Shown: positions 12,001 through 56,248 of the stretch, one piece after another | Layout of the letters: every line of letters begins with the position of its first letter | How positions within the stretch are numbered: position 1 is the stretch's first letter | Origin: Giardia intestinalis | Taxonomy: Eukaryota | Reading direction: 5' to 3' (one strand) | Assembly: GCA_000002435.2 (NCBI GenBank) | Contig: CM018793.1 | Length of the DNA stretch: 64,000 bases | Program-made: the position numbers and the translations under genes | The notes under the pieces: generated by a model | What the model was told of the DNA's origin: nothing | Databases searched by the model: none | What the model saw: only the letters and a program-made list of their open reading frames with translations

Positions 12001-15000
12001 CTGCCAAGACATTTCTAGCCACGGTCTTTCCTGTCAGAGTGTCTCCTACCGTCATTAGCCCATGTCTTATAATGTGAGTATCATAGATCTGGAGAATCTT
12101 GCTGACGTATTCAGCACACGGTTGAAGCCCTTTGGCTGAGAGAATTCGAACAATCTCTGCGTGTAACCCGCCGTGCTCCACAGAGGGAATCTGGACGCCG
12201 GGGAAGAGATCCTGGATAATGCCCATGAAGAGCTCGATATCGTCAACGAGGAACTTCGGCAAGTTGGCATCACGCATGGCCTGGATGAGGACTATGTCCT
12301 CGCTTAGGTGAATATACTTGCGCCGTAGCCCACCAGCCATGACAAGGACCGATTTGATCGCACGCATACCGAAATCGTAATGGCTCTGGTGCGATAGCTG
12401 CTCCGAGCTGAGCTTGTAGAGCTGCACCATCTTGCGGCTAAGGACCTTGGCCGTTGTAAAGCCCTCTGAGAAGAGAATGATCTCCGCAATTAAGGCGTAG
12501 TTGGGAACAACCATAGAGATAGGGCGGAAAAGTGCCTTCAGGTTATCCGGAAGCTCCACACGGCCCGCATACCCTGGGTTCATTGTGATGAATATACCGC
12601 AGCGCTTTGTCGGATCCCCGTTACCGACCGATATGTCTAGGCCATCTTCTGACGATCCTCCTGCGTTGAAGAGGAAGTGATCAGCGCCTGTAAGGATTGC
12701 CGTTTGAATGCAAAGGATCTGGGATGCTACGACAGAAAGAACCTCAACCTCAATGCGGTTGAACTCGTCAAAGCAGCTCCAAGCACCGCACATCACCAGG
12801 CCAATAAAGAACTTCCCCATGGCAGCAACATTGAGCCCCTCTGAACAGTTAAAGACGAGGCATTGGATGCTCATCGCTTTAGCAAGGTCCTTTGTCGACT
12901 CCGTCTTACCTGTGCCTGCAGGCCCCTGGGGGGCCCCGCCCATGAAGTTCGCCAGCGCCGACGTTAGCGTAATGAAGCATCTGTCCGTCAGTGGTGTGAG
13001 AACCAACCGTGTACTGATGCCCATGTACTCGTATCCGCACGTGAAAAATGAGTTTGTCTGTCGAATAACAAGATCTCCAGAGAATTCATCGGAATCCAAC
13101 TGAGAATGCGCTACCCTTTTCGCTTTATCATTATGGTGCCAATAGTAGCGGAGCTGCTTCAGCCACCCAAACTCTGATGGGATAAGACAATAGTTTTCTG
13201 AGGAGGAATCTAACAAAGAGCTTGTGACGTCACGGCTATGGACCTCTAAGACAATAAGCGTCGAGATGAGCCCCCGCTGCTGGCTGCTCAGATCTGTCAT
13301 GGTGAGGGAGACTAGTTCGTTAATCTGCTTCAGAAGATTTTCACTAAAGCGCTCCATAGCCTCTCTCCCACTAGATCCCTTTTCGGCATCGATGAGTAAG
13401 GCCTCTTCCACCCCATTACACCACACAGCTTGGCCAGCAGCCATGACACACTGCGCAGGATGGTCAAACATCCATTCTTTGCGTTGCTCTCCGACCCGAG
13501 GAGAAAAGCTTAGAGTGTGATACATGTTGTAGCGCACCGTATTCACCATTTCCTTTTCAAGCGCAGTGAGCCAGACTTCCACTAGTCCACCAGATGGAAC
13601 GACGCAGTTGACAAACATGACTTTTTCGCCCTCAGGAGAGATCATGGCAGTTATCTTCTTCTGGGGACCGGAGGCCGGTAACGAGGGCTCGTCCTCATCA
13701 GCATCTTCTGTAGTTGCCATTCGTTTGCGCCTTTTGGCACTAGCCGATGTGGTAGTTGTAAGTGGTTGCTCACCCAACTCCTCGAGCTCTATATCTCCAA
13801 TAGCTTCAAAGATTTTCCTAAGGAAGGGTCTAACAGTGCTGGGCTCCGTCGTCTGAGCAAGAATCTGGAGAAGTTCGTCGTTTGATAGGAAAAAGAAGCG
13901 TGGAAACGCAAGACGCTTGGACTCAAGGTAATCTTCGAGACGTTTCTGGATTACCTCCAGCTTTTCATTGGCAGCTGTCAACTCCTTAAGAAGGTCGTGG
14001 TTTGCAAGGGGCGTATTTGGGATCCCTGCATCCACGACTGTCATAATGCACGGGTTGCTTGCAACAGTCTCCATTAGCTTCTGCCAAAACGCATCAACCT
14101 GGGAGAAATCAGCGGACTCGCGTGGAAGCTGTCTGCGGATATCATCTGGTGCAAAGATGCTCTCCAGATACAGCCAGGTTTGCTGCATCTTGCACCATTC
14201 GTCTAGCACCTCAGCAAATGTACTGAGCTTCTTTTCCCATGACTCCACGGCCGGTTTGATCCCTGCAATGTATCTGGATCCAGCCATCGCTTGAAGAGTA
14301 GAGGTGGAGTCTTCCAGCTGCTGATAGATCTCCTCAACGCCAGAAATTATGTGGTGCAGGACACCAGAACGAGAGCTGTATTCCTTGACAGCCAGGACGG
14401 TTCCTTCCCATATACACCGTATTTTCTCCAGAGAAAGCTCTATGTTGCGCTCTCCGCTTGCAGTAGCAGAAATCGATGCTATCTCGGCGCGCTTATTCAG
14501 AACACCAGCATCTAGGAGCGTCTCAAACGAAAAACCCGAGTTATAGCTCAATGACCCTGGCTCCTTAGCAAATGGCTTCAGAGTCTCAAAGATCTTTTCC
14601 CAGTGGCGTGGCTTTAGGTTAATATTCCCCAGATCAGCGATTAGCTGGGACTTCTGCTTCATAGATGTAACAGCCCTCTTCAGTGCAGCTGCGACACCAT
14701 CCTCTGGGAGAAGTCTAGCGAACTTTGTCGAATCCTTAGTTGCTTCATTAATGAAGCTTAGACACGTTTCTGCACTGAGGTACTTGAACTTGGCAACAAT
14801 CGGGTCTACTTTTTTCTCTGTGTCATCAGCACTTTCGTCATGAGCATCGAGTGCATCATCGGCTGCCGCCTCTCCTTCAGCTGCGTCCTTTTCGCCTTCG
14901 ACTGCCGAGGCAACAGCAACGCCAGCTTCGTTAGGCTCTGCCTCTTCCAGTTTGCAGTTAATGACGGTGTCTATCCAAGAAGAGACCATAAGACGATCCT

Positions 15001-18433: not shown

Positions 18434-18638
18434 GCTTTTTTGTCCTGACTCGGATTTTGTGCTGAATTTACATGTTGCTATTTATGAAACAAAGCTCACG
18501 CATACACAGGCTCCGGAAAAATAAATGTAGCGAACCCACGCGCAAGCGTTGCTACGAGGCGATGGAGACAAAAGCAGTTACGTTCGCAACTCTCTGAGGG
18601 TTCCTGATGCTTCCTTGGATGTCCGAGCCTTCCTTTAC

Positions 18639-29162: not shown

Positions 29163-32100
29163 ATGCTATCCTTTTATTTACAATGTGTCGTTTGAACGTA
29201 TTTTTCTATGAAAACTGAAGTTACAATACAATGTGTCCCTAGGAGAGGCGCCCGCCGCCCTCTGCCGTCTGCCCCGTGGGCCTCTCGAGTGCCCGCGAGG
29301 CGATCCGGCTAGCGTGTCCGCGCCCCTTACGTAGGCAGGGATTCTCGCCGTCTCTGTCCCGCCGCCCTGGGCACCAGCACAGGGTCGCTTGCTGCGCCAT
29401 CGTTGGTGCCTCTCCCGTGCCGAGCCAGGAGCACTGCAACCGCTGCAGCCTCTGTGTCAGGGCGGCCCGCACTGTTTTGTGGGTCCTCCTATGAGGTGCA
29501 AGCCGCGTGGGTGCCCTGATCGAGGTCGGCTAGCTGATCGGAAGCCTGAAGCCGGAATGACAGGCGCTCACAGTCTTCGACAGCTTTTGGTTCTGCTACT
29601 AGGGACAGATACCCACGATGACTATGCCCCCATCAGTTCGAATACAGTTGGCTGCGTTGTGGCCACGTCGTCAGCGTGTATCGGCTGGGCCCCTCAGAAG
29701 CTAAGAGTCTCGTCCAGAGCCCTTTCATCTCTATTTTGTTTCCAGTACTACTCCTGGAAGTCTACTAGCCCTTTGTCATGGTTAATGTGCAATGTTTCTA
29801 AGCTCTCAAGTCGTGGGACAGCCCGAGCACTCCTTGCCTTTCCCACTTCCTAGCAGGTTCACAAGCTGAGTTAGAGACGGCCGATTCTCCTGGCCCACAA
29901 CTAATAGACGCTGTACTAGCTCTACTCAGCTGCGCCTTCGGCTCTGTTTAGGCCAAGCTCCCAGTTCCCTGGAGGGACACCCTCATTCCCCATATCTTTA
30001 ATAAAGGCTAGAGCATTCATAGCCATACGTTCATGTAAAATATAACGCATGCTCCAAATACTCGAGGTGGTTATGCCCTTTCCTACTCCATGCCCCCGGG
30101 ACTGTATGCATTAGCATGACTTCAAAATATGCTCTGTTGAGCCTATCTTTTGGAGCACAGAAAACTAAAAGAACGGAGCCATGTTTTCGCCATGATCGAA
30201 CTCGGTTACGACTAGATATACTGTACTGCGACAGAGGAAAGCTCTCCATTAGAGTGTCTTTTCTCAGACACGTGAAATGCGCCATCAGAGCCGAAATCCG
30301 ACGAACCATCTCGAGGGCTTTGGCCTCTTGGATGGCCATTCTCCACTGTCTGAAGAACCTTATTGCGTCTTTAAGAGCAGACTTATAACATTGCATGCAC
30401 AGGCAAAAGGTTCTTTGTTGTGCAATACCTGTTTGTATTCAAAGGGATGTAAAGGCTTGAAGAGCTGCATAGTACACAGGTCGGCCTCAGTGGCGTCCGG
30501 AATAATCCCCTTCAATTAGATACCCCTACCTACCTCGTCCAATGTGTCTTTCAATGCATAAACAGTTCTATACAATCCTTTGCCAATCACTATAGCCAGC
30601 TTAATCATCGGATCATCACTCGTTTCAGTTTTCTCAGACATTTTTAGTTGATACTCGATGAGCTGACCTAATTGGTAGTGCCAAAGGTAGCATGAAGTTT
30701 GTCTGCTTTGCATATGGAAGGATCTGTTATATCCTTACAGAATTTGGCAGTGCAATGTATAATTACCAACAAGGATCTGTAAAGCAAATAGTCACAAGTT
30801 TTGAAGGATTTAGCAAGACTAAAAGTCACTCTCAGACCTCAACTTGAGTATAAGTGATGATCCTATCGAGAACTAAAGGTCCATAAACGTAACGGAACAG
30901 GCGAATAGTCCGATAATTATTTCTTCTTGAAACGACAGATTTTTTCATGCTTCTAAGTGATTAAACTAAAGACAAATTCTAGGCTAAATAAGAGCCCCGG
31001 AATCCCTTGAAGCATAAGCTATCCTATTACTGGGTTATTATAGAATCTAACTAACTCTAGTACTGTGGAATGGCAACCAGGTTTAAAGTAAGGGAAGATC
31101 TATGTGCTTACAGACTTTAGGCCCACGGGATAGGGGTAGCAAATCATATATTTGAAGCTAATTGTTTGCCATCTTATCTTCTAGCTGATTCACAGTAATG
31201 TGTATCCTTCGCACCGCAAATGGTTTCTAGTATCAAGAAAATGCATAGCAACTCTACCGGGCTACAGCTAAAATAAAGCAAGAAGCAAAGTCCACGGATA
31301 TATGCCCAACTATACATAGTTATCATAATTGGCTAGGGCCTCGCGGATTACACAGTGCCTTTGCGATGTGCAAGATAACATCGTATAGTAATGTGCACTC
31401 ATCCATAAAGTAGCACGCATTATTTGTACATATTGATGTAGCAGGGCCTGGTATCTCCAATTATCCGGATAGCTTTCTAACTCGACTAGTAATAAGTTGC
31501 AATATCTTTATTCTTCGCCAAATGGCCAGCATTTTCTGAGGGTCTAGACCAGGAATAGTGAAGTCAGCATTCAATTGAGTACTTGTACACTGCACATAGG
31601 GTGGGTTGGTCTCTACGCATCCAAAGTTTGTAGCGGAAACTCATTGCGTAACTATCTAAGAATCCTATGCAAAATCGATAGCTCTTAACGCAGATAGGCT
31701 ATCTTTTCAAATCTACAAATCGCTAAGATCCCCTTTCTAAAATCTTCGACATCACAGACCCCATGCCAGGCAGCAAACCTTGTGCTACATAATATGAGAG
31801 CCTCTAGGATGTGTAAACACCTGTGCGGCTACAGCGACGTATCTCCATTCACAGGTGCCAGTAGAACCGATGGACACTGGTGAAGCATATCGGTGGGTGG
31901 AAGATGTAGTGAGTCAGGCATTCTGTATACTGTCATTCACCACAGCTCCCGTAGTGAGCCATGGGGAGCCTGAAGACTGGTGCTCTATGGCGGCGTGAGT
32001 GTGGGTGGTGAGCCTAGAGCAGTCGCCGAATCGATGGTTTCGGGACAGCTTCTGTCATGAAGGATAATAGAACAGTGCAGCGAAGAACAGGTAACCCAAG

Positions 32101-35456: not shown

Positions 35457-35537
35457 ATGCAGCACAGGCAGATGCCACGAAGGGGCGGACTAGTGAACAG
35501 AGCTGTCATGGCCTGTGTGACAGAGCGCCGGGCCATA

Positions 35538-37313
35538 ATGTTCTACGCAGTTTTACTGATCGGCCTTGCGCTTCAGCTGGCGACAGAGGAGTGCACACCT
35601 GTTTCTTCCGGTGGCCCCAACACTTGCAAGGCCTGTGACGCTGTCATCAACGGCAAGAAGTACTGCTCGCAGTGCAATGATACTGGGAATTCTGATTCCA
35701 GTGGCGCCCCGACAGACGGAGTGTGCTCAGCAGACAATAACGAGTGCAGCCAAAAACAAGATGGGAAGTGTACACAGTGCGCTAATAAATCCTTCATGTA
35801 CAAGGGCGGATGCTACAAGGATAGCCAGGCACCTGGCAACACGATGTGTGAAACAGCAACTGATGGAGTGTGCACGCAGGCTAAGGCTGGGTACTTCCTA
35901 CCACCCGATGCTGATAGAGATAATGCACACCAATCGGTCATACCATGTGGAGATGACACAGTAGTAACGCTTGGAAATAGCAAACAGTACAAGGGCGTAC
36001 CGCACTGCACTCAGTGTGAGAAGCCCACAGAGGCAAGTGATACTACTACTGCCAAGGCTGCGACGTGCACGGCTTGTGAGGACGGGTTCTTTGGGGCTAC
36101 TTGTGAAGCATGCCAAGACGAGAATTGCGCTACGTGTGCCATGACAGGCAATAACAAGTGCAGTAAGTGTAAAGGAACTGGTACTAAGACATATCTGAAA
36201 GTGGACGGTGGCAGCACAGGCACGTGCGTCGAAGCATCTGGATGTACAGCTGCTACGTTTCCAAAGGTCGATGAACAACAGGGAAACAAGTGCGCTGCAT
36301 GTAATAGTGTGCCAGATGGTGGAATCGCTAATTGTGCGACGTGCAGTCTGCTCACTCAAGGATCTAGAGCCGCCCCTTTGGTCACATGCTTGACGTGTGA
36401 ACAAAATAAGTATCTCACTCCAGAAAAGAATGCGTGCTTAGATACCTGCCCTGCTGGAATGTATGCCGTTAGTGGCGATAGCGGCAATGTTTGTACCCCC
36501 TGCCACGAGTCGTGCGCAAGCTGTAGCAATGACGCAGCAACGTCGTGCACGGCCTGCTATCCGGGGCATGTGCTGAGTCGGTCGTCTGGTGACGCAGGAA
36601 CGTGCATAAAAGAGTGCACGGGAGACTTTATGGCCCACTGCAAGGCCGACGGCTGCTCACTGAACGTCGGAGGCTCGAAGTACTGCGATCAGTGCGAGGA
36701 GGGGTACGCCCCAGTCGACGGCGTCTGCACATCCATACCTGCAACAGCGAGAGATGCCTCCGGATGTAAGGCAAGTGGCGGGAAATGCACTGAGTGTGGG
36801 GCAAACTACGCTCTGTTATCGGGCGGATGCTACAACACACAGAAGCTTCCTGGTAGCTCTGTGTGTACGGCTGCACAGAATAAGGGACAATGCCAAACGT
36901 GTGCCAATGGACAAAGCCCAGCTGGAGGAAAATGTCCGGCGTGTACTGAAGGATGTGTGAAGTGTGCGGGTAGTAAGGAAACCTGCACAGATTGCTTAGC
37001 AGGGTATTACAAAGGTGCCGGTGATAAATGCTTCAAATGCACGGATAGTGATAAGGCTAGCTCTAATGCAATAACTGGTGTAGAAAACTGCATAAGCTGT
37101 GCCCCGCCAGCTGGTGGCAATGGCCCTGTCACCTGTTACGTAACGCAACAAAAGGCTGACGATGGCACCGGCGGAGATACTGGAGGAGACAGCACGAACA
37201 AGAGCGGCCTCTCCACGGGCGCCATCGCGGGGATCTCCGTCGCTGTGGTCGCTGTCGTGGGGGGCCTCGTGGGCTTCCTCTGCTGGTGGTTCCTCTGCCG
37301 GGGGAAGGCGTGA
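35538..37313 (+). CDS. Variant-specific surface protein (VSP), about 591 aa from the signal-peptide Met
   Basis: N-terminal hydrophobic signal peptide [15 protein letters not shown]; more than 25 CXXC motifs; GGCY motif; C-terminal TM segment plus the invariant [17 protein letters not shown] tail. The conserved 3' motif CTTAGGTAGTGAAT starts at the stop codon. The start is trimmed to the ATG at 35538. Confidence 0.9.
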
Positions 37314-37327
37314 CTTAGGTAGTGAAT
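37314..37327 (+). promoter_or_regulatory. Conserved VSP 3' end and poly(A) signal (CTTAGGTAGTGAAT)
   Basis: It directly abuts the VSP stop codon. The same TAGGTAGTRAAY core recurs at 37590, at 40296 (minus strand) and at 42942. Confidence 0.6.
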
Positions 37328-37395
37328 GCTGTACAGTGATAGTGATAGTGCTATGTGGTGTGACATGCTCTGTGGGTGACTGCAAGAGCTGTGTG

Positions 37396-37584
37396 ATGGA
37401 TGATGTGTGTGGGGAGTGCAGCGATGGGTTCAGCATAGAGGGTGGCAGGTGTGTGTCTTCTGGCACCAACAGGAGCGGGCTCAGCGCGGATGCCATCGCG
37501 GGGATCTCTGTGGCTGTCGTCGTCGTCGTCGGAGGGCTTGTCGGCTTCCTCTGCTGGTGGTTCGTGTGCAGAGGAAAAGCGTAG
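37396..37584 (+). pseudogene. Truncated VSP 3' fragment (last CXXC module, TM and CRGKA tail), a tandem partial duplicate of a VSP 3' end
   Basis: It encodes ...[76 protein letters not shown]. There is no signal peptide and no in-frame Met upstream except the one at 37396. It is followed by its own CTTAGGTAGTAAAT motif (37590-37603). Confidence 0.55.
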
Positions 37585-38135
37585 ATGTACTTAGGTAGTA
37601 AATACGTCACTGTATAAGCCTATCACTCCTGTTTCCAGGGCCTCGCCTGTAGGTGCATTCAAGGATCTCACGGGCAATTCTTATTCAATTTCTGGCCGTC
37701 CGGAGATGAGGGTTGGTTTTGGATAACATAACGAGAGAGTCCTCTCCAGTGATATATCCAGAGCCTAGCGCCTTCCCCGGTCGCTCCGCAGGGGTGTGCT
37801 CAGACCGAATGCGTACTTCGGTCCTTTCGGGGTTCAGGCCTTCTTACGGACTCTCTGGTCCACCAATGGCGCCTCTTCTTGGTCTTCCTTCGTGGCGGGT
37901 GAAGCTCCGGTCGCTGTCTTTTTTAGATGCCCCGTCTGTCGGGGGCTGCCATCGGGCTCTCCGCTGGCTGGGCCCCTCGGTGTCCGTCCGGCTGTGGTTC
38001 TGGGCAGTGGTCCCACAGTCGCGGTCACGTAGGTCCCAGTGGGCCGGCTGGTGGGTGGGGCGGGGGTATGGGGCGGTGAGGCTGGAGGGGCTCTGGTGGG
38101 ACCAGGTGGTGGGTGTTCGTATGTGCCCCTGAGCT
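37585..38135 (+). repeat. Inverted-repeat arm A (3' flank of VSP 35538..37313 and its tail fragment)
   Basis: The translated ORFs on this arm (37713..38132 +, 37796..38032 +, 37844..38287 -) reappear almost residue-for-residue on the opposite strand at 39626..40274. Direct nucleotide comparison of 37690-37800 with the reverse complement of 40090-40200 gives about 80% identity, rising above 90% over 37863-38075 versus 40024-39799. Confidence 0.8.
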
Positions 38136-39759
38136 CCTGATGAGTGGGGTGATCGCAGCTGTGGTGACTGGGGGCTGTCCATCTGTGACTCACCCCTCTG
38201 TGTGCTCGTGGTCTGTGAGTGCCTCCACCCAGACAACGCCTCAGGAGCCGTGCACACCGGGACAGAGAGGATGACCAAGGGGGTCAAGCAGCCCCGCTAC
38301 GAGAGATGAGAGTGCACAGCAACCAGCCTGATCTGCAGGGCTGCTCGAGCGATGTAGTGGTAGACGGCTCCCTCTGACAGCGACCCTGGTGACTGCACTG
38401 GCCTGCTCTCGAGGCTGAGTGACAGTGTGCACAGATGGACCTGAGTGCAGGAGGACCATCCACACACGAACAGACTGTGTAGACCCAGAGAGGACTGGAG
38501 TCTGCTCGGGACACGCTGACTGTGCCCCCATACGAGAGCACCAGGCAACCACCCGAGCACCCGAGAGGCAACAACAGACACGGGCACCAGAGATCCCCAA
38601 CCAGATACATTGCTACGCTCATCCACAGGGGCATCAGAGGACCAGGTGGGGTCACCCTCACAGTCAGGGCCTGATAGGAAGCCAGAGGACTCACGCAGCA
38701 CAGTAGGTCCAAGGGAGGCACACTCCAGGCAGGTGAGCAGTGGCAGAGCCCTGACAGCTGCCAGCCCCCATGACACCCAGGCAGGCACCAGACTCACCGA
38801 AGACTCCGCTGGCCTCGACTGTCTTCATTGATGACCCGAGGGGGCAGCAGCCAGAGGAGTGAGGAGGCCTTCGGACGCCACAAGAGGCCCGGCTGTCCAG
38901 CAGGCTACGAGGCAGACAGGTGACCTCTGAGCACCACCCAGGCACAGAGCCGACCATCAGAGTGATGCCCGATCACAGAGATGATCACGAGCACCCTCCA
39001 CTGCACTCTGAGGGGCTGTCAATCATCCCAGCTGCCTCTCATAGCAGACCTCCTTGGGGGCAGTGCAGTGGGTCCCAGCTCATGCAGGAGGGTGCACGCC
39101 CCTCGGCATAGGATGCCCCGGCTCTCCCCGAGGGGTCATCAGAGCCACGAGAGGTGTTAAGGTTAGTAGACCACACCGGGAACTCCCGAGGGCACAGCAG
39201 GTGATGTTGGGTGATCCTCAGCGTGCTCCTCTCTGATGGTAGAGCATCCTGAGACCAAGGAGGCTCACCTCTGCCTACGGACGACACACAGCGCTCCACA
39301 ACGAGGACCCACCAGGAGCAGCACAGCTGGTCACGGGGATAGTGCAGCCACCCGGTGCCCCACCGTGTTAGTCTTTTGAGTCATCACACTAGAGGCATGA
39401 GAGAACCCCATCCCATCCACAGGCTCATCCACACCCCTGCTGGCCCGAGGTGAACTACCGTCGAGGCACTGGACAGGGCATGCCAGGGGCTCAGCAGATC
39501 CACACAGAGCATCAGCACAGAGCATCAGCGAGTAGCAGGAGAGGCTGCGATGGCCTGCCTCAACCCTCACGCACCAGCCAGACAGAGAGGCAGTACTGCC
39601 CGAGACAAGGGGCCAAGGGAGGCGCTCAGTCAGGGGGACACGACACGATCGTCGGTGCCTGTGTCTTGGAGTGCAACGAAGGCTGGGGATCAGACACAAC
39701 CACCTTAGCAAACAGAGCGGGGATCACCCACCACCCCACTGGCCCACTAGACCCAGGGA
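38136..39759. other. GC-rich spacer, ORF-free (only Pro/Arg-rich GC-artefact ORFs), between the VSP-flank inverted-repeat arms
   Basis: No ORF has recognisable protein features. Composition is above 60% GC. It contains a small direct duplication acagagcatcagc x2 at about 39503-39530. Confidence 0.5.
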
Positions 39760-40310
39760 CACATACAAGCACCCCCCACCTCAGCCCCCACCAGGAGCCT
39801 ACCAGCCTCACCGCCCCATACCCCCGCCCCACCCACCAGCCGGCCCACTGGGACCTACGTGACCGCGACTGTGGGACCACTGCCCAGAACCACAGCCGGA
39901 CGGACACCGAGGGGCCCAGCCAGCGGAGAGCCCGATGGCAGCCCCCGACAGACGGGGCATCTAAAAAAGACAGCGACCAGAGCTTCACCCACCACGAAGG
40001 AAGACCAAGGAGAGGCGCCACTGGTGGACGATGTACATGGTGAGTAAGCGGAATCCCAGGCCGACTGAGCAAGCATTCCCGGGTGTGCACACTCAGCTGA
40101 GCACACCCCTGCGGAGCGACCAGGGAAGGTGCCAGGTTTTAGATATACTAAAAGAGAGGAGCTCCTCGTTATATCATCCACAACCAACCTTTGTCTCCGG
40201 ACACGGCCAAAGGAGCGAGAATTTATTCGTGAGATTTCTGGATCGTACCTACAAGCACCCGGTAGCACATCCATATAAGCTACATAAAGTAACGCGTTTA
40301 CTACCTAAGT
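39760..40310 (-). repeat. Inverted-repeat arm B (3' flank of VSP 40311..42638)
   Basis: Reverse-complement counterpart of arm A. It includes the VSP 3' motif (GTTTACTACCTAAG, 40296-40309 on the plus strand, reading CTTAGGTAGTAAAC on the minus strand) and the downstream block tggccgtgtccggagacaaaggttgg...ggtcgctccgcaggggtgtgctcag. Confidence 0.8.
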
Positions 40311-42638
40311 CTACGCCTTCCCCCTGCAGAGGAACCACCAGCAGAGGAAGCCCACGAGACCCCCCACAACGACGATGACTGCGACGGAGATCCCCGCGAT
40401 GGCGCCAGTGGAGAGCCCGCTCTTGTTCGTGCTACCACCGGCACTGTCACCGTTCATGAGGTAGCAGAGAACGGAGCCAGTACTAGACGATGGAGGAGCG
40501 CAGCTCATGCAGCCAGCAACTCCCTTGACACTTCCACTGTTGCTGTCACACGAAGTGCATGGTCCAGCTGCTGATCCGACCATATAGTACCCAGCTGCGC
40601 ATGACGTACACTGGTCAGAGCTATCTGCAGCTGAACATGTATTACAGGTTGAATGACACGAGGGGCATGCTCCATCATTGGGCCGAAGACTATTAGCACA
40701 TGTTTCGCACTTACCCCTGCTATCAGCTAATGTGCATATCTGTTTGCCTGGCTGCTTGGTAGTTTCATAGCAGCCGCCTTCCTTGAGGAAGTAGTTAGCG
40801 GCGCATTTGATACATGCTCCATTATTCATTTCAGTACAGAAAGCTACTCGTGCGTTACTTGTTGTACAGACCCCGTTCAGAGGAGCCTGATTATCCACTG
40901 AGCACTGGGAGCAGTAGTCTGTCCCGCCGATCCTTGCCCCACAGACCTTACATCCGTTCTTGTCCGCCGTACACGCATCCCCGCAGGTGCCCCCTTGCAC
41001 AGGATCACTACTTTTGTATATTAATGCCTTGCCAGCAGGACAAGCACTACACTGATTGTTGGCTGGCCCAACGCACTCAGCGCACTCAGGGCTGCATGCC
41101 TTACACTTCCTGTCAGTATCTCCATAGTATCCGCTGATGGTCGTGCAGTCAGGTATGCACTGGTTTGTTGGAGTGAGATAATTGTTGTCATTACATTCAG
41201 TGCAGACCTCTCTGTCAGTCTTCGGGTTATCACAGGCCTTGCAGTTGGGAGTATTGCAGGCCCCTGCCTTCGGAACACACGTGAGCCCGTCCTCTGACGG
41301 CTGGTACGTCTCCGTGCACGTGCAGATTCCTCCTGCCTCGTTTGCGTTATCGGGGCACTTCGCTATGCAGCCCTTTCCGTTCGGCTGGACCTTCTGTCCG
41401 ACCGTCGCACAGCCCGTGCATGTCTGCTCGCCCCCAGGAGGCGTTGCGCACGTGCTACAGCCGGGTATCGGTGGGTCACAGGCCGTTTTCAGGACACACG
41501 TGAGCCCGTCCTCTGACGGCTGGTACGTCTCCGTGCACGTGCAGATTCCTCCTGCCTCGTTTGCGTTATCGGGGCACTTCGCTATGCAGCCCTTTCCGTT
41601 CGGCTGGACCTTCTGTCCGACCGTCGCACAGCCCGTGCATGTCTGCTCGCCCCCAGGAGGCGTTGCGCACGTGCTACAGCCGGGTATCGGTGGGTCACAG
41701 GCCGTTTTCAGGACACACGTGAGCCCGTCCTCTGACGGCTGGTACGTCTCCGTGCACGTGCAGATTCCTCCTGCCTCGTTTGCGTTATCGGGGCACTTCG
41801 CTATGCAGCCCTTTCCGTTCGGCTGGACCTTCTGTCCGACCGTCGCACAGCCCGTGCATGTCTGCTCGCCCCCAGGAGGCGTTGCGCACGTGCTACAGCC
41901 GGGTATCGGTGGGTCACAGGCCGTTTTCAGGACACACGTGAGCCCGTCCTCTGACGGCTGGTACGTCTCCGTGCACGTGCAGATTCCTCCTGCCTCGTTT
42001 GCGTTATCGGGGCACTTCGCTATGCAGCCCTTTCCGTTCGGCTGGACCTTCTGTCCGACCGTCGCACAGCCCGTGCATGTCTGCTCGCCCCCAGGAGGCG
42101 TTGCGCACGTGCTACAGCCGGGTATCGGTGGGTCACAGGCCGTTTTCAGGACACACGTGAGCCCGTCCTCTGACGGCTGGTACGTCTCCGTGCACGTGCA
42201 GATTCCTCCTGCCTCGTTTGCGTTATCGGGGCACTTCGCTATGCAGCCCTTTCCGTTCGGCTGGACCTTCTGTCCGACCGTCGCACAGCCCGTGCATGTC
42301 TGCTCGCCCCCAGGAGGCGTTGCGCACGTGCTACAGCCGGGTATCGGTGGGTCACAGGCCGTTTTCAGGACACACGTGAGCCCGTCCTCTGACGGCTGGT
42401 ACGTCTCCGTGCACGTGCAGATTCCTCCTGCCTCGTTTGCGTTATCGGGGCACTTCGCTATGCAGCCCTTTCCGTTCGGCTGGACCTTCTGTCCGACCGT
42501 CGCACAGCCCGTGCATGTCTGCTCGCCCCCAGGAGGCGTTGCGCACGTGCTACAGCCGGGTATCGGTGGGTCACAGGCCGTTTTCGGGCCGATTCCTGCT
42601 AGAACCGTTGTGCACACTAAAAGAATTACTGCCAACAT
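40311..42638 (-). CDS. Variant-specific surface protein (VSP, 775 aa) containing six identical 73-aa tandem repeats
   Basis: Signal peptide MLAVILLVCTTVLAGIG; a six-fold repeat KTACDPPIPGCSTCATPPGGEQTCTGCATVGQKVQPNGKGCIAKCPDNANEAGGICTCTETYQPSEDGLTCVL; then canonical CXXC-rich VSP body, GGCY motif, TM segment and [12 protein letters not shown] tail. Confidence 0.9.
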   Translation of the reverse strand: MLAVILLVCTTVLAGIGPKTACDPPIPGCSTCATPPGGEQTCTGCATVGQKVQPNGKGCIAKCPDNANEAGGICTCTETYQPSEDGLTCVLKTACDPPIPGCSTCATPPGGEQTCTGCATVGQKVQPNGKGCIAKCPDNANEAGGICTCTETYQPSEDGLTCVLKTACDPPIPGCSTCATPPGGEQTCTGCATVGQKVQPNGKGCIAKCPDNANEAGGICTCTETYQPSEDGLTCVLKTACDPPIPGCSTCATPPGGEQTCTGCATVGQKVQPNGKGCIAKCPDNANEAGGICTCTETYQPSEDGLTCVLKTACDPPIPGCSTCATPPGGEQTCTGCATVGQKVQPNGKGCIAKCPDNANEAGGICTCTETYQPSEDGLTCVLKTACDPPIPGCSTCATPPGGEQTCTGCATVGQKVQPNGKGCIAKCPDNANEAGGICTCTETYQPSEDGLTCVPKAGACNTPNCKACDNPKTDREVCTECNDNNYLTPTNQCIPDCTTISGYYGDTDRKCKACSPECAECVGPANNQCSACPAGKALIYKSSDPVQGGTCGDACTADKNGCKVCGARIGGTDYCSQCSVDNQAPLNGVCTTSNARVAFCTEMNNGACIKCAANYFLKEGGCYETTKQPGKQICTLADSRGKCETCANSLRPNDGACPSCHSTCNTCSAADSSDQCTSCAAGYYMVGSAAGPCTSCDSNSGSVKGVAGCMSCAPPSSSTGSVLCYLMNGDSAGGSTNKSGLSTGAIAGISVAVIVVVGGLVGFLCWWFLCRGKA
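41271..42584. repeat. Six 219-bp tandem repeats, nucleotide-identical where compared, inside the VSP coding sequence
   Basis: The string gtgagcccgtcctctgacggctggtacgtctccgtgcacgtgcag recurs at 41281, 41500, 41719, 41938, 42157 and 42376 with identical intervening sequence. Only the outermost junctions differ. Confidence 0.9.
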
Positions 42639-42922
42639 TAAGTTTAAGCTTACGCTCGATTATTATTCTCTTCAATTAAGCTTATAATTAATCCATAAGT
42701 TATAGACAAACCACTGTTACCTTTTGATAAATCAATTAGAATGGAAAAGAATAAAATCAAGAGCACACCTACCAGAGGCCGGCTGATAGTGCGGTTCTCC
42801 CTGGCTTCAATAGAAACAGGATGAGTGAGGGCTAGACTCAGATCGTGCGTCCCTTGCGGAAACTAATAATTGTTCAGAGATGCATTCCTATACATTGCTG
42901 TCAGTATGTTTGTCGACTTTTT

Positions 42923-42955
42923 TGCAGAGGCAAGGTGTAGATTTAGGTAGTAAAT
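42923..42955 (+). pseudogene. Relic of a VSP 3' end: codons CRGKV* followed by the conserved TTTAGGTAGTAAAT motif
   Basis: tgc aga ggc aag gtg tag at 42923-42940 is one substitution from the invariant CRGKA*. It is followed by atttaggtagtaaatgcg. The upstream frame opens after a stop only about 20 codons earlier, so no gene body remains. Confidence 0.5.
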
Positions 42956-54433: not shown

Positions 54434-56248
54434 ATGTCCACTGATAGAGAATGTGCACAATGCAACTGGGTCATGGACAGAGATGACGTAGATCTCACCG
54501 TAGCAACCATGGTGAGCGACATCCTTCAGCAGTACTCACGAGATCCTCATAAAACTCACGGTACAAACCGCTCGGGGAGCCCCTGCTCGACTCAGGCGTC
54601 TGTTCCTCTATCCGAGATTACTGGCTCAGAAGAAGAAGCCTCTCTCCGGCCCATTGCTCACAGATTAGGAACTGTTCCCCGTCCTGCTTCAATGAATGCA
54701 GTTGCAGACGTGAAGACGCGTCTTAAAGAGTATAAGCAAAGGGTCAACCACCTGGAGGCAGAAATTCGCAACCTGGAGCAGACACTCATCGACGAGCGCA
54801 CCAAAGCATCCGTATATCAAATGGAACAAGAACAGCTTATTGCTACCATGAAGGAGAGCTTTAAGCAAGAGAACTTGAAGCTGCTGGCGTCCAACAAGCA
54901 AATTGTAGAGAAGCTCCTTGCAGAAAAAAAGGACCTGGCCGACAAGTATGAGGAGCTGGCCAATGATCTCCACAAAGCCAAGCTTGAGCAGATGGGCAAC
55001 GTAACGGCTGCCTCTGAAAACGAAATTCTCAAGACGCAGTTAGATAAGCTTAAGCAAGAACACGTGTCACTAAAGGCAACCTTCGATGAGCAACTTGAGA
55101 AGGCCAAACACAGAATCCAAGTAACTGAAAGCAAGAAGCGAAAGCAAGCTGTTGAAGAGGCCATAGAGCAGACCAAGCATACGCTAGCATTAGGATTAGA
55201 GCCAAAGCTCCAGGAGATGGACCTAGCTCATAAGACAGAGACATTAAAGCTCACAGCTGACCATGAAACAGCTCTCCGACGGCAAAAGCAAGACCTGACT
55301 CTTCAGCACGAAGAAGCCTTGGCAAAGCAGCGTACAGAAATTATGAAGCAAACAGCAGAGGAAATCGATCAACTCCGCGAAGAGATGCAACAGAAAATCA
55401 AACGAGTCAAGGCAGAGTTACAGCATGAACACAGCCTAGAACTAGAGACCATCAAAAAGAAACTGCAAATGGAGCACGATGTGTCTGTCAGCACAGAGCT
55501 TACCAAGATGCGCGGCCTTCTCAACGAAAAAACATTAGAATGCGACATACTCAATGACAAATTGCAAAAGTTGAGTGCAGAAGCTCAGAAATCTATAGAG
55601 CAGCTCAAGCTAAGCTACATATCTGAGGTAGACAAGTACAGAGTTGCCTATGCAAATGAGGTTTCAGTGATTAAAACGCAGTACAAGGAGCTAGCAAGAA
55701 CACTCTGGTTGCAGAGTAAGCCAGAGATGGTGGAGCAGGTAAGGACGGAGCGCGATAAGATTCTCAAGTCCATGGCAAAGACATGGGATGAGAAGATCGA
55801 AGCAGCTCGGCTGCAAGAGCGCACGGTGGTGACTGAAAAGGAGGCTGAGATAGCTACAAAGGACGCGAGGATTAAAGACTTGCAGCTACAACTTCTCAAC
55901 GCTGAGGTAGAAACGAGCAAATGTAATGCAGAGCGGGAGGCTTTAACTGGTAGAATTTCTCACCTTGTTAATGAAAAGGATTCTTTCATGACTAGGCAAT
56001 CCTATAGTTATGCTAGGCTGCAGATGAGTGTGGAGGACTATCGCTGTCGAGCAATTCGCCAGCAAACCAGACGGCGCGACTTCGAGGCCAAGATTAAGAA
56101 CAAGGTGCAGGAGAAGCTTCTGGCCATTGCTCAGGAGAAAGACACTCTAATAGCACAACTCACTGAAGCCCTGGAACTAGAACAGCAGCGCTCCGCCGAG
56201 TATGTCGCACAGCTTGCTCAGCTGCAGGAGCTGACAAATGCCGAGTGA
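54434..56248 (+). CDS. Hypothetical coiled-coil protein (604 aa)
   Basis: Strongly heptad-like and rich in Glu, Lys, Leu and Gln throughout (LEAEIRNLEQTLIDERTKA...; ELQHEHSLELETIKKKLQMEHD...). Typical of Giardia cytoskeleton-associated coiled-coil proteins. Confidence 0.6.
   Translation: MSTDRECAQCNWVMDRDDVDLTVATMVSDILQQYSRDPHKTHGTNRSGSPCSTQASVPLSEITGSEEEASLRPIAHRLGTVPRPASMNAVADVKTRLKEYKQRVNHLEAEIRNLEQTLIDERTKASVYQMEQEQLIATMKESFKQENLKLLASNKQIVEKLLAEKKDLADKYEELANDLHKAKLEQMGNVTAASENEILKTQLDKLKQEHVSLKATFDEQLEKAKHRIQVTESKKRKQAVEEAIEQTKHTLALGLEPKLQEMDLAHKTETLKLTADHETALRRQKQDLTLQHEEALAKQRTEIMKQTAEEIDQLREEMQQKIKRVKAELQHEHSLELETIKKKLQMEHDVSVSTELTKMRGLLNEKTLECDILNDKLQKLSAEAQKSIEQLKLSYISEVDKYRVAYANEVSVIKTQYKELARTLWLQSKPEMVEQVRTERDKILKSMAKTWDEKIEAARLQERTVVTEKEAEIATKDARIKDLQLQLLNAEVETSKCNAEREALTGRISHLVNEKDSFMTRQSYSYARLQMSVEDYRCRAIRQQTRRRDFEAKIKNKVQEKLLAIAQEKDTLIAQLTEALELEQQRSAEYVAQLAQLQELTNAE

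Follow-up and report, generated by a model that had tools for sequence, protein, structure and literature searches.

Directly downstream of an intact VSP gene on chromosome 5 of Giardia lamblia WB, a second VSP-type 3' end is encoded; it comprises a CXXC module, a TM helix and a terminal CRGKA followed by a stop codon. Judged from its sequence, this fragment is very probably a non-expressed, 5'-truncated and promoterless VSP pseudogene, vsp30. It would be the second member of a two-member linear array behind vsp31 and a relic of recombination. It is an already known element and falls within a known class of silent VSP fragments, since Adam et al. 2010 and Rodriguez-Walker et al. 2022 describe such elements and this copy has itself been catalogued. 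All coordinates below refer to the window, a 64,000-nt stretch of WB chromosome 5. The upstream gene and the fragment consist of the following features:

35538-37313, plus strand: intact VSP gene vsp31 (GL50803_115742; KAE8305454.1; XP_001703913.2; 591 aa), identified by its ORF, a Pfam match (E=3.5e-87) and an exact protein match.
37313-37327, plus strand: extended poly(A) signal of vsp31, ACTTAGGTAGTGAAT, found by motif search.
37328-37359, plus strand: junction, a non-coding post-poly(A) flank of the 'GCTGTACAGTGATAGTGATAG...' type, 32 nt long and common to composites elsewhere, identified by alignments.
37162-37584, plus strand: open frame of 140 aa, formerly annotated as a VSP (vsp30; GL50803_115474; XP_001703911.1), from the ORF list.
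37360-37584, plus strand: 5'-truncated VSP remnant, identified by reading and from the ORF list; C-termini of full-length VSPs align with it, and it matches Pfam profile positions 358-397.
37360-37462, plus strand: last CXXC module of the fragment.
37463-37581, plus strand: juxtamembrane stretch, TM helix and CRGKA of the fragment.
37582-37584, plus strand: stop codon of the fragment, TAG.
37589-37603, plus strand: extended poly(A) signal of the fragment, ACTTAGGTAGTAAAT, found by motif search 4 nt past the stop.

The gene upstream is intact, as the first-pass annotation had stated: it matches the VSP profile with the E-value above, an initiator (TAATGTT) is located at 35536, and the frame closes with TGA at 37311-37313. 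An older, 618-aa model of vsp31 (XP_001708801.1) starts at 35457. The second VSP tail and second poly(A) signal reported beyond this stop were also found, at 37360-37584 and 37589-37603 respectively. Four occurrences of the extended poly(A) motif were counted in the window, where 0.52 would be expected by chance, and none of 100 shuffled sequences reached four.

VSP homology in the fragment begins 46 nt past the upstream stop. The tail of the fragment is 79-80% identical to that of the upstream VSP over about 120 nt; the two WB tails form a direct repeat with a period of 271 nt. The fragment shares with complete VSPs a TM helix with a CRGKA tail and an extended poly(A) signal just past the stop. 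It contains two CXXC motifs only (CKSC and CGEC), and the extracellular domain of a complete VSP, with its many CXXC motifs, is absent. Other traits are those of array members and pseudogenes: the fragment lies head-to-tail behind a vsp gene, it lacks an initiator and a signal peptide, and it has kept the conserved 3' end.

The fragment had been credited with a single Met and a product of 62 aa. The Met codon at 37396 does give a product of exactly 62 aa and is the only Met of the VSP-like part; however, the frame remains open further 5' to an ATG at 37162, which lies within the upstream VSP and in a different frame from that gene. The resulting 140-aa frame shares 152 nt with the upstream gene, and its first ~66 residues correspond to the out-of-frame tail of the upstream VSP plus the junction. 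Pfam PF03302 (VSP) matches the 140-aa ORF with E=1.2e-19, covering only profile positions 358-397 of 397 (the last 40 residues).

Further downstream is a second intact VSP gene in the opposite orientation. The features of this side of the locus are:

40311-42638, minus strand: opposing intact VSP gene (KAE8305455.1; 775 aa) with six tandem repeats of 219 nt, identified by an exact protein match; its initiator is at 42640(-).
40296-40310, minus strand: poly(A) signal of the opposing VSP, found by motif search.
37463-38131, plus strand: left arm of an inverted repeat, consisting of the fragment tail, UTR and about 547 nt of 3' flank, identified by collinear alignment.
39754-40432, minus strand: right arm of the inverted repeat, consisting of the tail, UTR and 3' flank of the opposing VSP, identified by collinear alignment.
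38132-39753, no strand assigned: GC-rich (60-65%) spacer with no recognisable gene, delimited by composition.

ORFs in the spacer gave no Pfam match. The two arms are 79.6% identical over 696 nt. The stop codons of the fragment and the opposing VSP are 2726 nt apart, and flank homology ends at 38131, ~547 nt past the stop. Tail-to-tail VSP pairs are known with separations of 2393-3222 nt and flank homology of 318-572 nt (Adam 2010, Table 5). Spacing and flank homology here are also inside the pair criteria of 2.2-3.8 kb separation and abrupt divergence 139-729 nt past the stop. The fragment, not vsp31, occupies the place of the inverted partner; this follows from the collinearity of its tail, UTR and flank with those of the opposing VSP, together with a spacing within the published ranges.

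The locus resembles tail-to-tail pairs (e.g. vsp1267; Adam 2010, Tables 4 and 5) in its facing 3' ends, in its spacing, and in flank homology that is followed by divergence. In contrast to those pairs, the partners are not identical ORFs; one is a remnant of 225 nt that follows an unrelated VSP. Alignment of the fragment with the opposing VSP is limited to the last ~122 coding nt (81% identity), and the last module of the opposing VSP is different, so the two are not near-identical ORFs. The arms of published pairs are nearly identical, whereas the arms here are about 80% identical except for one 97% patch.

A second recent copy of the VSP pair is present on WB chromosome 5 (KAE8305472.1 and KAE8305473.1). 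The vsp31-type (VSP1-type) paralogue of this pair is identical from about residue 62 on; the opposing-type (VSP2-type) paralogue is 99% identical and has one repeat unit against six. In the 2007 proteome the 140-aa ORF appears twice, in each case two numbers ahead of a VSP1-type entry. This double entry suggests that the fragment was duplicated along with the second chromosome-5 pair, and thus seemingly travelled with the VSP-pair unit.

The 140-aa ORF is 100% identical to XP_001703911.1, 'VSP [Giardia lamblia ATCC 50803]', from the 2007 annotation. In the catalogue of Adam et al. 2010 (PMC2996952, Additional file 1), vsp30 (GL50803_115474) is listed as 'LAO' (overlapping linear array), clade III, chromosome 5, with no Inr, 140 aa, 11 Cys and 2 CXXC; vsp31 (GL50803_115742) is listed as LAO, first of the array, with Inr TAATGTT and 618 aa. 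Beyond this catalogue, the gene IDs of the pair were not mentioned in the literature searched. Roughly 75-200 partial VSP genes have been catalogued for the Giardia WB genome.

The current annotation seems no longer to count the fragment as protein-coding. KAE8305454, KAE8305455 and KAE8305456 (VSP, VSP and next gene) run consecutively, which suggests that this annotation has no protein-coding gene between the two VSPs. The next gene is GL50803_0015013 (KAE8305456.1), and all three are on one 4.02-Mb chromosome. The 140-aa protein is on record in older sources only, with no called gene. A lookup of assembled contigs returned no record for the exact 140-aa ORF, the 618-aa or 591-aa VSP, or the paralogue P0375.

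The fragment was described earlier as promoterless and without a signal peptide, and both points hold. YAATGTT sites near the locus are found at 35536(+) and 42640(-), where the two full VSPs start, and at an internal, out-of-frame position (36485). The motif search found none from 36491 to 42634, and hence none at 37162 or 37396. By reading of the sequence, neither the 62-aa nor the 140-aa product has a hydrophobic N-terminus that could act as a signal peptide. According to Rodriguez-Walker et al. 2022 (bioRxiv 10.1101/2022.03.07.483299), VSP-like ORFs that end in CRGKA and lack a signal peptide are VSP pseudogenes.

Two routes by which the fragment could be joined to the upstream protein were considered and discarded. 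Splicing of the upstream VSP to the fragment was rejected because GTATGT and intron-like 3' signals are absent from 35.4-37.7 kb. Stop-codon read-through is excluded because the upstream frame reaches a second stop, TAG, 9 nt past the TGA of vsp31.

The arrangement of tail, junction and tail is not confined to WB. It is found at three further loci, two in DH (L001 and L002) and one on a metagenome contig from ENA (L022), and the neighbouring genes differ from locus to locus; together with WB, these are the four composites compared. The junction is 87-90% identical between loci, compared with 77-85% for the tails. Between 37314 and 37352, WB and L001 have only one difference. A scan of metagenomes with the junction pattern gave no matches.

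The copy at L022 is the most informative about origin. Here the fragment can still be recognised as a ~268-nt tandem duplicate of the parent end; the copies are 86% identical in the module, 92% in the tail, and 34/34 in the poly(A) signal and the next ~20 nt of flank. A 'GCTGTACAGTGATAGTGATAG...'-type flank follows both tails, and the flank duplicated in L022 is the WB junction sequence, 'AATGCT(C/G)TA(T/C)AGTG..GATAG'. Because L022 bears the same type of sequence after both tails, the junction is explained as a post-poly(A) flank. An alternative derivation of 37328-37359 from upstream VSP coding sequence (...CTSCDSDKKP...) with deletions was dropped in favour of this origin. A distinct family of short (<150 aa) fragments was likewise ruled out; an exhaustive protein search showed that full-length VSPs share the C-terminal module.

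The period of 271 nt and the direct-repeat tails could be read as a duplication of the adjacent VSP tail in place at this locus, with later divergence of the copy; L022 is an example of such a tandem duplicate. This is improbable for WB. The last module of vsp31 has no counterpart to that of the fragment, which is instead the standard C-terminal module of another VSP class (P0110; P0111 is similar). The flanks after the two poly(A) signals also differ: the first is of the L022 type, and the second resembles the flank of the opposing VSP. Finally, the same junction is found at other loci behind other upstream VSPs.

Two earlier suggestions are thus modified. The statement that the fragment is not a simple local duplication of the adjacent gene agrees with the 79% identity of the tails and with a module unmatched in the neighbour; however, L022 indicates that the structure probably did begin as a local 3' duplication. 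The suggestion that recombination joined the 3' end of another VSP at this position is sound in so far as a recombination origin is the best reading. The position is another matter, as the junction recurs (87-90% identical) at the three other loci.

Recurrence also bears on whether the composite could be an assembly artefact, for instance two VSP 3' ends that were collapsed or joined into a chimera. On either side of this island, short-read assemblies do break at VSP loci; more than 40 such contigs of other isolates all end at window position ~29266 or just past GL50803_15013. DH is 98% identical over the neighbouring genes, and its contig ends inside the spacer; in P15 (assemblage E), synteny extends up to the orthologue of the opposing VSP and is then lost. 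An artefact is nevertheless extremely improbable. The 2007 assembly contains the ORF seen in the window, the window is an exact match to current chromosome-scale proteins, including the six-repeat VSP, and the composite was assembled independently in DH (twice) and in the ENA metagenome.

Gene conversion has left marks on these tails. At L001, a 59-nt tract with L001-specific variants is identical in the parent and fragment tails. In WB, a patch of 225 nt (37864-38088; 97-98% over 37858-38085) is 97% identical between the arms and 88% identical to the DH orthologue, which shows that the two arms have undergone conversion in the WB lineage. Such conversion tracts show that the fragment swaps sequence with other VSP tails.

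The four copies also permit an assessment of coding potential. The frame of the fragment is intact in three of four, and the differences among copies are mostly synonymous (dN/dS 0.15-0.21); 23 of 40 differences are synonymous, against 24% expected (binomial p=7e-6). Taken at face value, this bias suggests protein-level constraint. The preferred explanation is gene conversion, by which the variation would have been brought in from functional VSPs; this is shown directly only for L001.

Low dN/dS is one of several properties which would fit a functional small gene, encoding a cysteine-rich protein of 62 or 140 aa with a C-terminal TM anchor in tail-anchored style and without a signal peptide. 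The ORF with its TM helix and CRGKA is intact, the fragment has its own poly(A) signal, and it was once annotated as a VSP. Such a gene is nonetheless highly unlikely. The initiator element is absent, and VSP-like ORFs without a signal peptide count as pseudogenes. The start codon is not kept across the copies: WB has the ATG at 37396, both L001 and L022 lack a start codon, and in L002, where the frame arrangement differs, the AATG within the poly(A) signal is used. The copy at L002 is decaying, with part of the TM helix and CRGKA gone. In addition, the ~66 residues at the start of the 140-aa model are out-of-frame neighbour tail and non-coding junction, and the protein is seemingly missing from the current set.

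Given the same synonymous bias, there is a slight chance that a cis-acting role maintains the second tail. The composite would then be a maintained module, as might be argued from a frame open in three of four diverged copies, strong synonymous bias, and a junction conserved above the tails. The second tail could have been selected as a recombination buffer or landing pad, such that VSP bodies are swapped upstream while the anchor and poly(A) signal are spared; it could also serve as a homology donor cassette that diversifies VSP 3' ends, or provide a longer alternative 3' UTR with a second small-RNA-targeted region. Downstream array members have been proposed as recombination cassettes (Adam 2010), pseudogene arrays of G. 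muris have been proposed as conversion reservoirs, and alternative polyadenylation has been reported for one VSP. Fragments do take part in conversion tracts, and the junction is better conserved than the tails.

Several observations speak against such a role. No sign was seen that expressed genes receive sequence from the fragment by conversion, as opposed to donating it. The antigenic diversity on offer is almost none, as the fragment consists of one module and an invariant tail. The L002 copy is decaying. In a superficial check, the nearby GlsR2/miR4 snoRNA and the fragment had no exactly complementary stretch of at least 8 nt. A cis-acting role is consequently unlikely, and a promoterless pseudogene is the preferred reading.

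The structure probably started as a local 3' tandem duplication, since the parent end and fragment of L022 are still tandem duplicates. We infer a single ancestral event which was later spread and overwritten, and by which the junction would be old and not made at this locus; the order of steps is based on four loci. In an ancestral VSP, a unit of ~270 nt would have been duplicated in tandem; it would have begun with the last CXXC module and included the TM helix, CRGKA, stop, extended poly(A) signal and the next ~30-45 nt of 3' flank. This would have produced the tail-junction-tail composite. Duplication or ectopic recombination may then have carried the composite to several loci. Repeated gene conversion from other VSPs would have overwritten both tails as well as the body of the upstream gene; the upstream gene in WB would for this reason now be an unrelated clade II VSP. 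The second tail, continuous with its 3' flank, would form the left arm of a degenerate tail-to-tail inverted pair.

At present, the fragment presumably makes no protein. It would act as a passive block of homology, with other VSP 3' ends and the opposite arm as its partners in gene conversion. At most, it may form part of the 3' UTR of read-through transcripts that end at the poly(A) signal of the fragment.

These properties correspond to those of linear arrays. More than half of WB vsp genes are located in head-to-tail linear arrays, in which the intergenic distance averages 60 bp and ranges from an overlap to 241 bp; downstream members have no initiator, are probably not expressed, and may be either cassettes for recombination or discarded remnants (Adam et al. 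2010, PMC2996952). In the same study, vsp13/vsp14 consists of a stop, 38 bp, a further stop, and 224 coding bp with a terminal CRGKA, an arrangement essentially like that of the fragment. As in these arrays (Adam 2010, BMC Genomics 11:424), the fragment lies head-to-tail behind an initiator-bearing VSP with a very short or overlapping gap, has no initiator, and ends in CRGKA and a poly(A) signal; there is no essential difference between it and the overlapping linear arrays.

The fragment also resembles the pVSP class (Rodriguez-Walker et al. 2022) in its TM helix, CRGKA, extended poly(A) signal and missing signal peptide. Only VSPs and VSP pseudogenes carry the extended poly(A) signal ACUUAGRUAGURAAYRY, and pseudogenes are frequent between tail-to-tail VSP pairs (bioRxiv 10.1101/2022.03.07.483299). 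What goes beyond Adam 2010 is the shared junction, the origin by a ~270-nt tandem duplication, and the tail-to-tail relation to the opposing VSP. In the assembly of Adam 2010, the opposing VSP was apparently located on another contig.

Outside this species, the closest parallels are the pVSP arrays of G. muris and the VSG pseudogenes of Trypanosoma brucei, which are likewise promoterless, truncated copies of surface-antigen genes; their conserved 3' ends are shared with expressed genes, with which they also exchange sequence. In T. brucei, VSG pseudogenes serve mosaic formation. VSP switching in Giardia is held to be epigenetic or post-transcriptional and not recombinational. Unlike other silent antigen arrays, the fragment has almost no variable sequence; this would make it a poor donor of antigenic diversity.

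By itself, the fragment matters little: it is one of many catalogued partial VSP genes and already has a name. The added value is comparative. The fragment belongs to a composite that recurs across loci and isolates and is no private accident; this composite can be traced to a 3' tandem duplication of ~270 nt and carries clear gene-conversion tracts. As a small, concrete case that is easy to assay, it illustrates the homogenisation of VSP 3' ends and the way in which linear arrays may start. It may also be of use for testing whether silent VSP fragments feed repertoire evolution.

Synteny between WB (assemblage A) and P15 (assemblage E) is unbroken, at 84% identity, from window position 55800 down to 43742 (position 12136 of the P15 locus, L010). 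Below 43742 it is represented by a single gene, the orthologue of the VSP at 40311-42638 (VSP2); P15 genes beyond this orthologue have no counterpart within the window. The VSP island is located at a WB/P15 synteny break. Features in and around the island are listed below, together with a VSP fragment from isolate DH.

Features discussed in the text (window coordinates unless a locus is named)
18526-18631 (+): Giardia snoRNA GlsR2, the miR4 precursor; full-length match to Rfam RF02335
29267-35456: stretch of ~6.2 kb upstream of vsp31
37864-38088 and 39802-40029: 225-nt patch with 97% identity between the inverted arms
41269-42663 (-): 219-nt (73-aa) unit, repeated six times in tandem inside the VSP at 40311-42638
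~42880-42955 (+): second orphan VSP tail, ...CRGKV* and then ATTTAGGTAGTAAAT, close upstream of the start of VSP2 (42638, -)
L003 5001-5339 (DH, AHGT01000047.1): lone 112-aa VSP 3' fragment

A second copy of the VSP1/VSP2 pair is found on WB chromosome 5, outside the window but on the chromosome from which the window comes; its proteins are KAE8305472.1 and KAE8305473.1. The VSP1-type paralogue is identical to vsp31, the intact VSP in front of the truncated tail vsp30, from residue ~62 through the C-terminus; the first ~60 residues differ. This 5'-end transition is a sharp mosaic boundary.

The six 219-nt units of VSP2 (minus strand) share ~99% mutual identity. Only one unit is present in the VSP2 paralogue KAE8305473.1 (410 aa), and the same is true of the orthologues in P15 (410 aa) and DH (405 aa). 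Given the single unit in all three proteins, the expansion to six is recent and restricted to the window copy.

Two inverted arms extend from the vsp30 side (37463-38131, +) and the VSP2 side (39754-40432, -). Outside the 225-nt patch, the arms are only 50-80% identical; the patch itself matches the DH orthologue at 88% identity. In the neighbouring segment (37699-37863), the DH arm beside the VSP2 orthologue is 86% identical to the WB vsp30-side arm and 58% identical to the WB VSP2-side arm. Conversion events have shaped these arms.

The ~6.2-kb stretch upstream of vsp31 contains no ORF longer than 170 aa and has no similarity to the loci compared with it. More than 20 independent short-read assemblies end exactly at position 29266; this shared end point suggests that a dispersed repeat begins there. 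GlsR2 lies ~19 kb from the VSP island and scores 133.9 bits against RF02335 (gathering score 100). In a simple search, neither vsp30 nor the vsp31 3' end showed a run of 8 nt or more exactly complementary to GlsR2.

The second orphan tail is oriented divergently from VSP2 and carries, in WB, a 16-nt deletion within the TM region. Its P15 counterpart (L010 ~12873-12946) retains a readable 13-residue stretch; in DH (locus L001), a counterpart is likewise found upstream of the VSP. Its presence in both P15 and DH shows that this relic arose before assemblages A and E separated.

Orphan VSP tails exist outside arrays too. In DH, the L003 fragment has a zf-C3HC4/ankyrin gene on one side and a WD40 (NLE) gene on the other; this locus contains no full VSP close to it. 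It ends in ...GGLIGFLCRGKA*, which indicates that the TM helix has been partly deleted.
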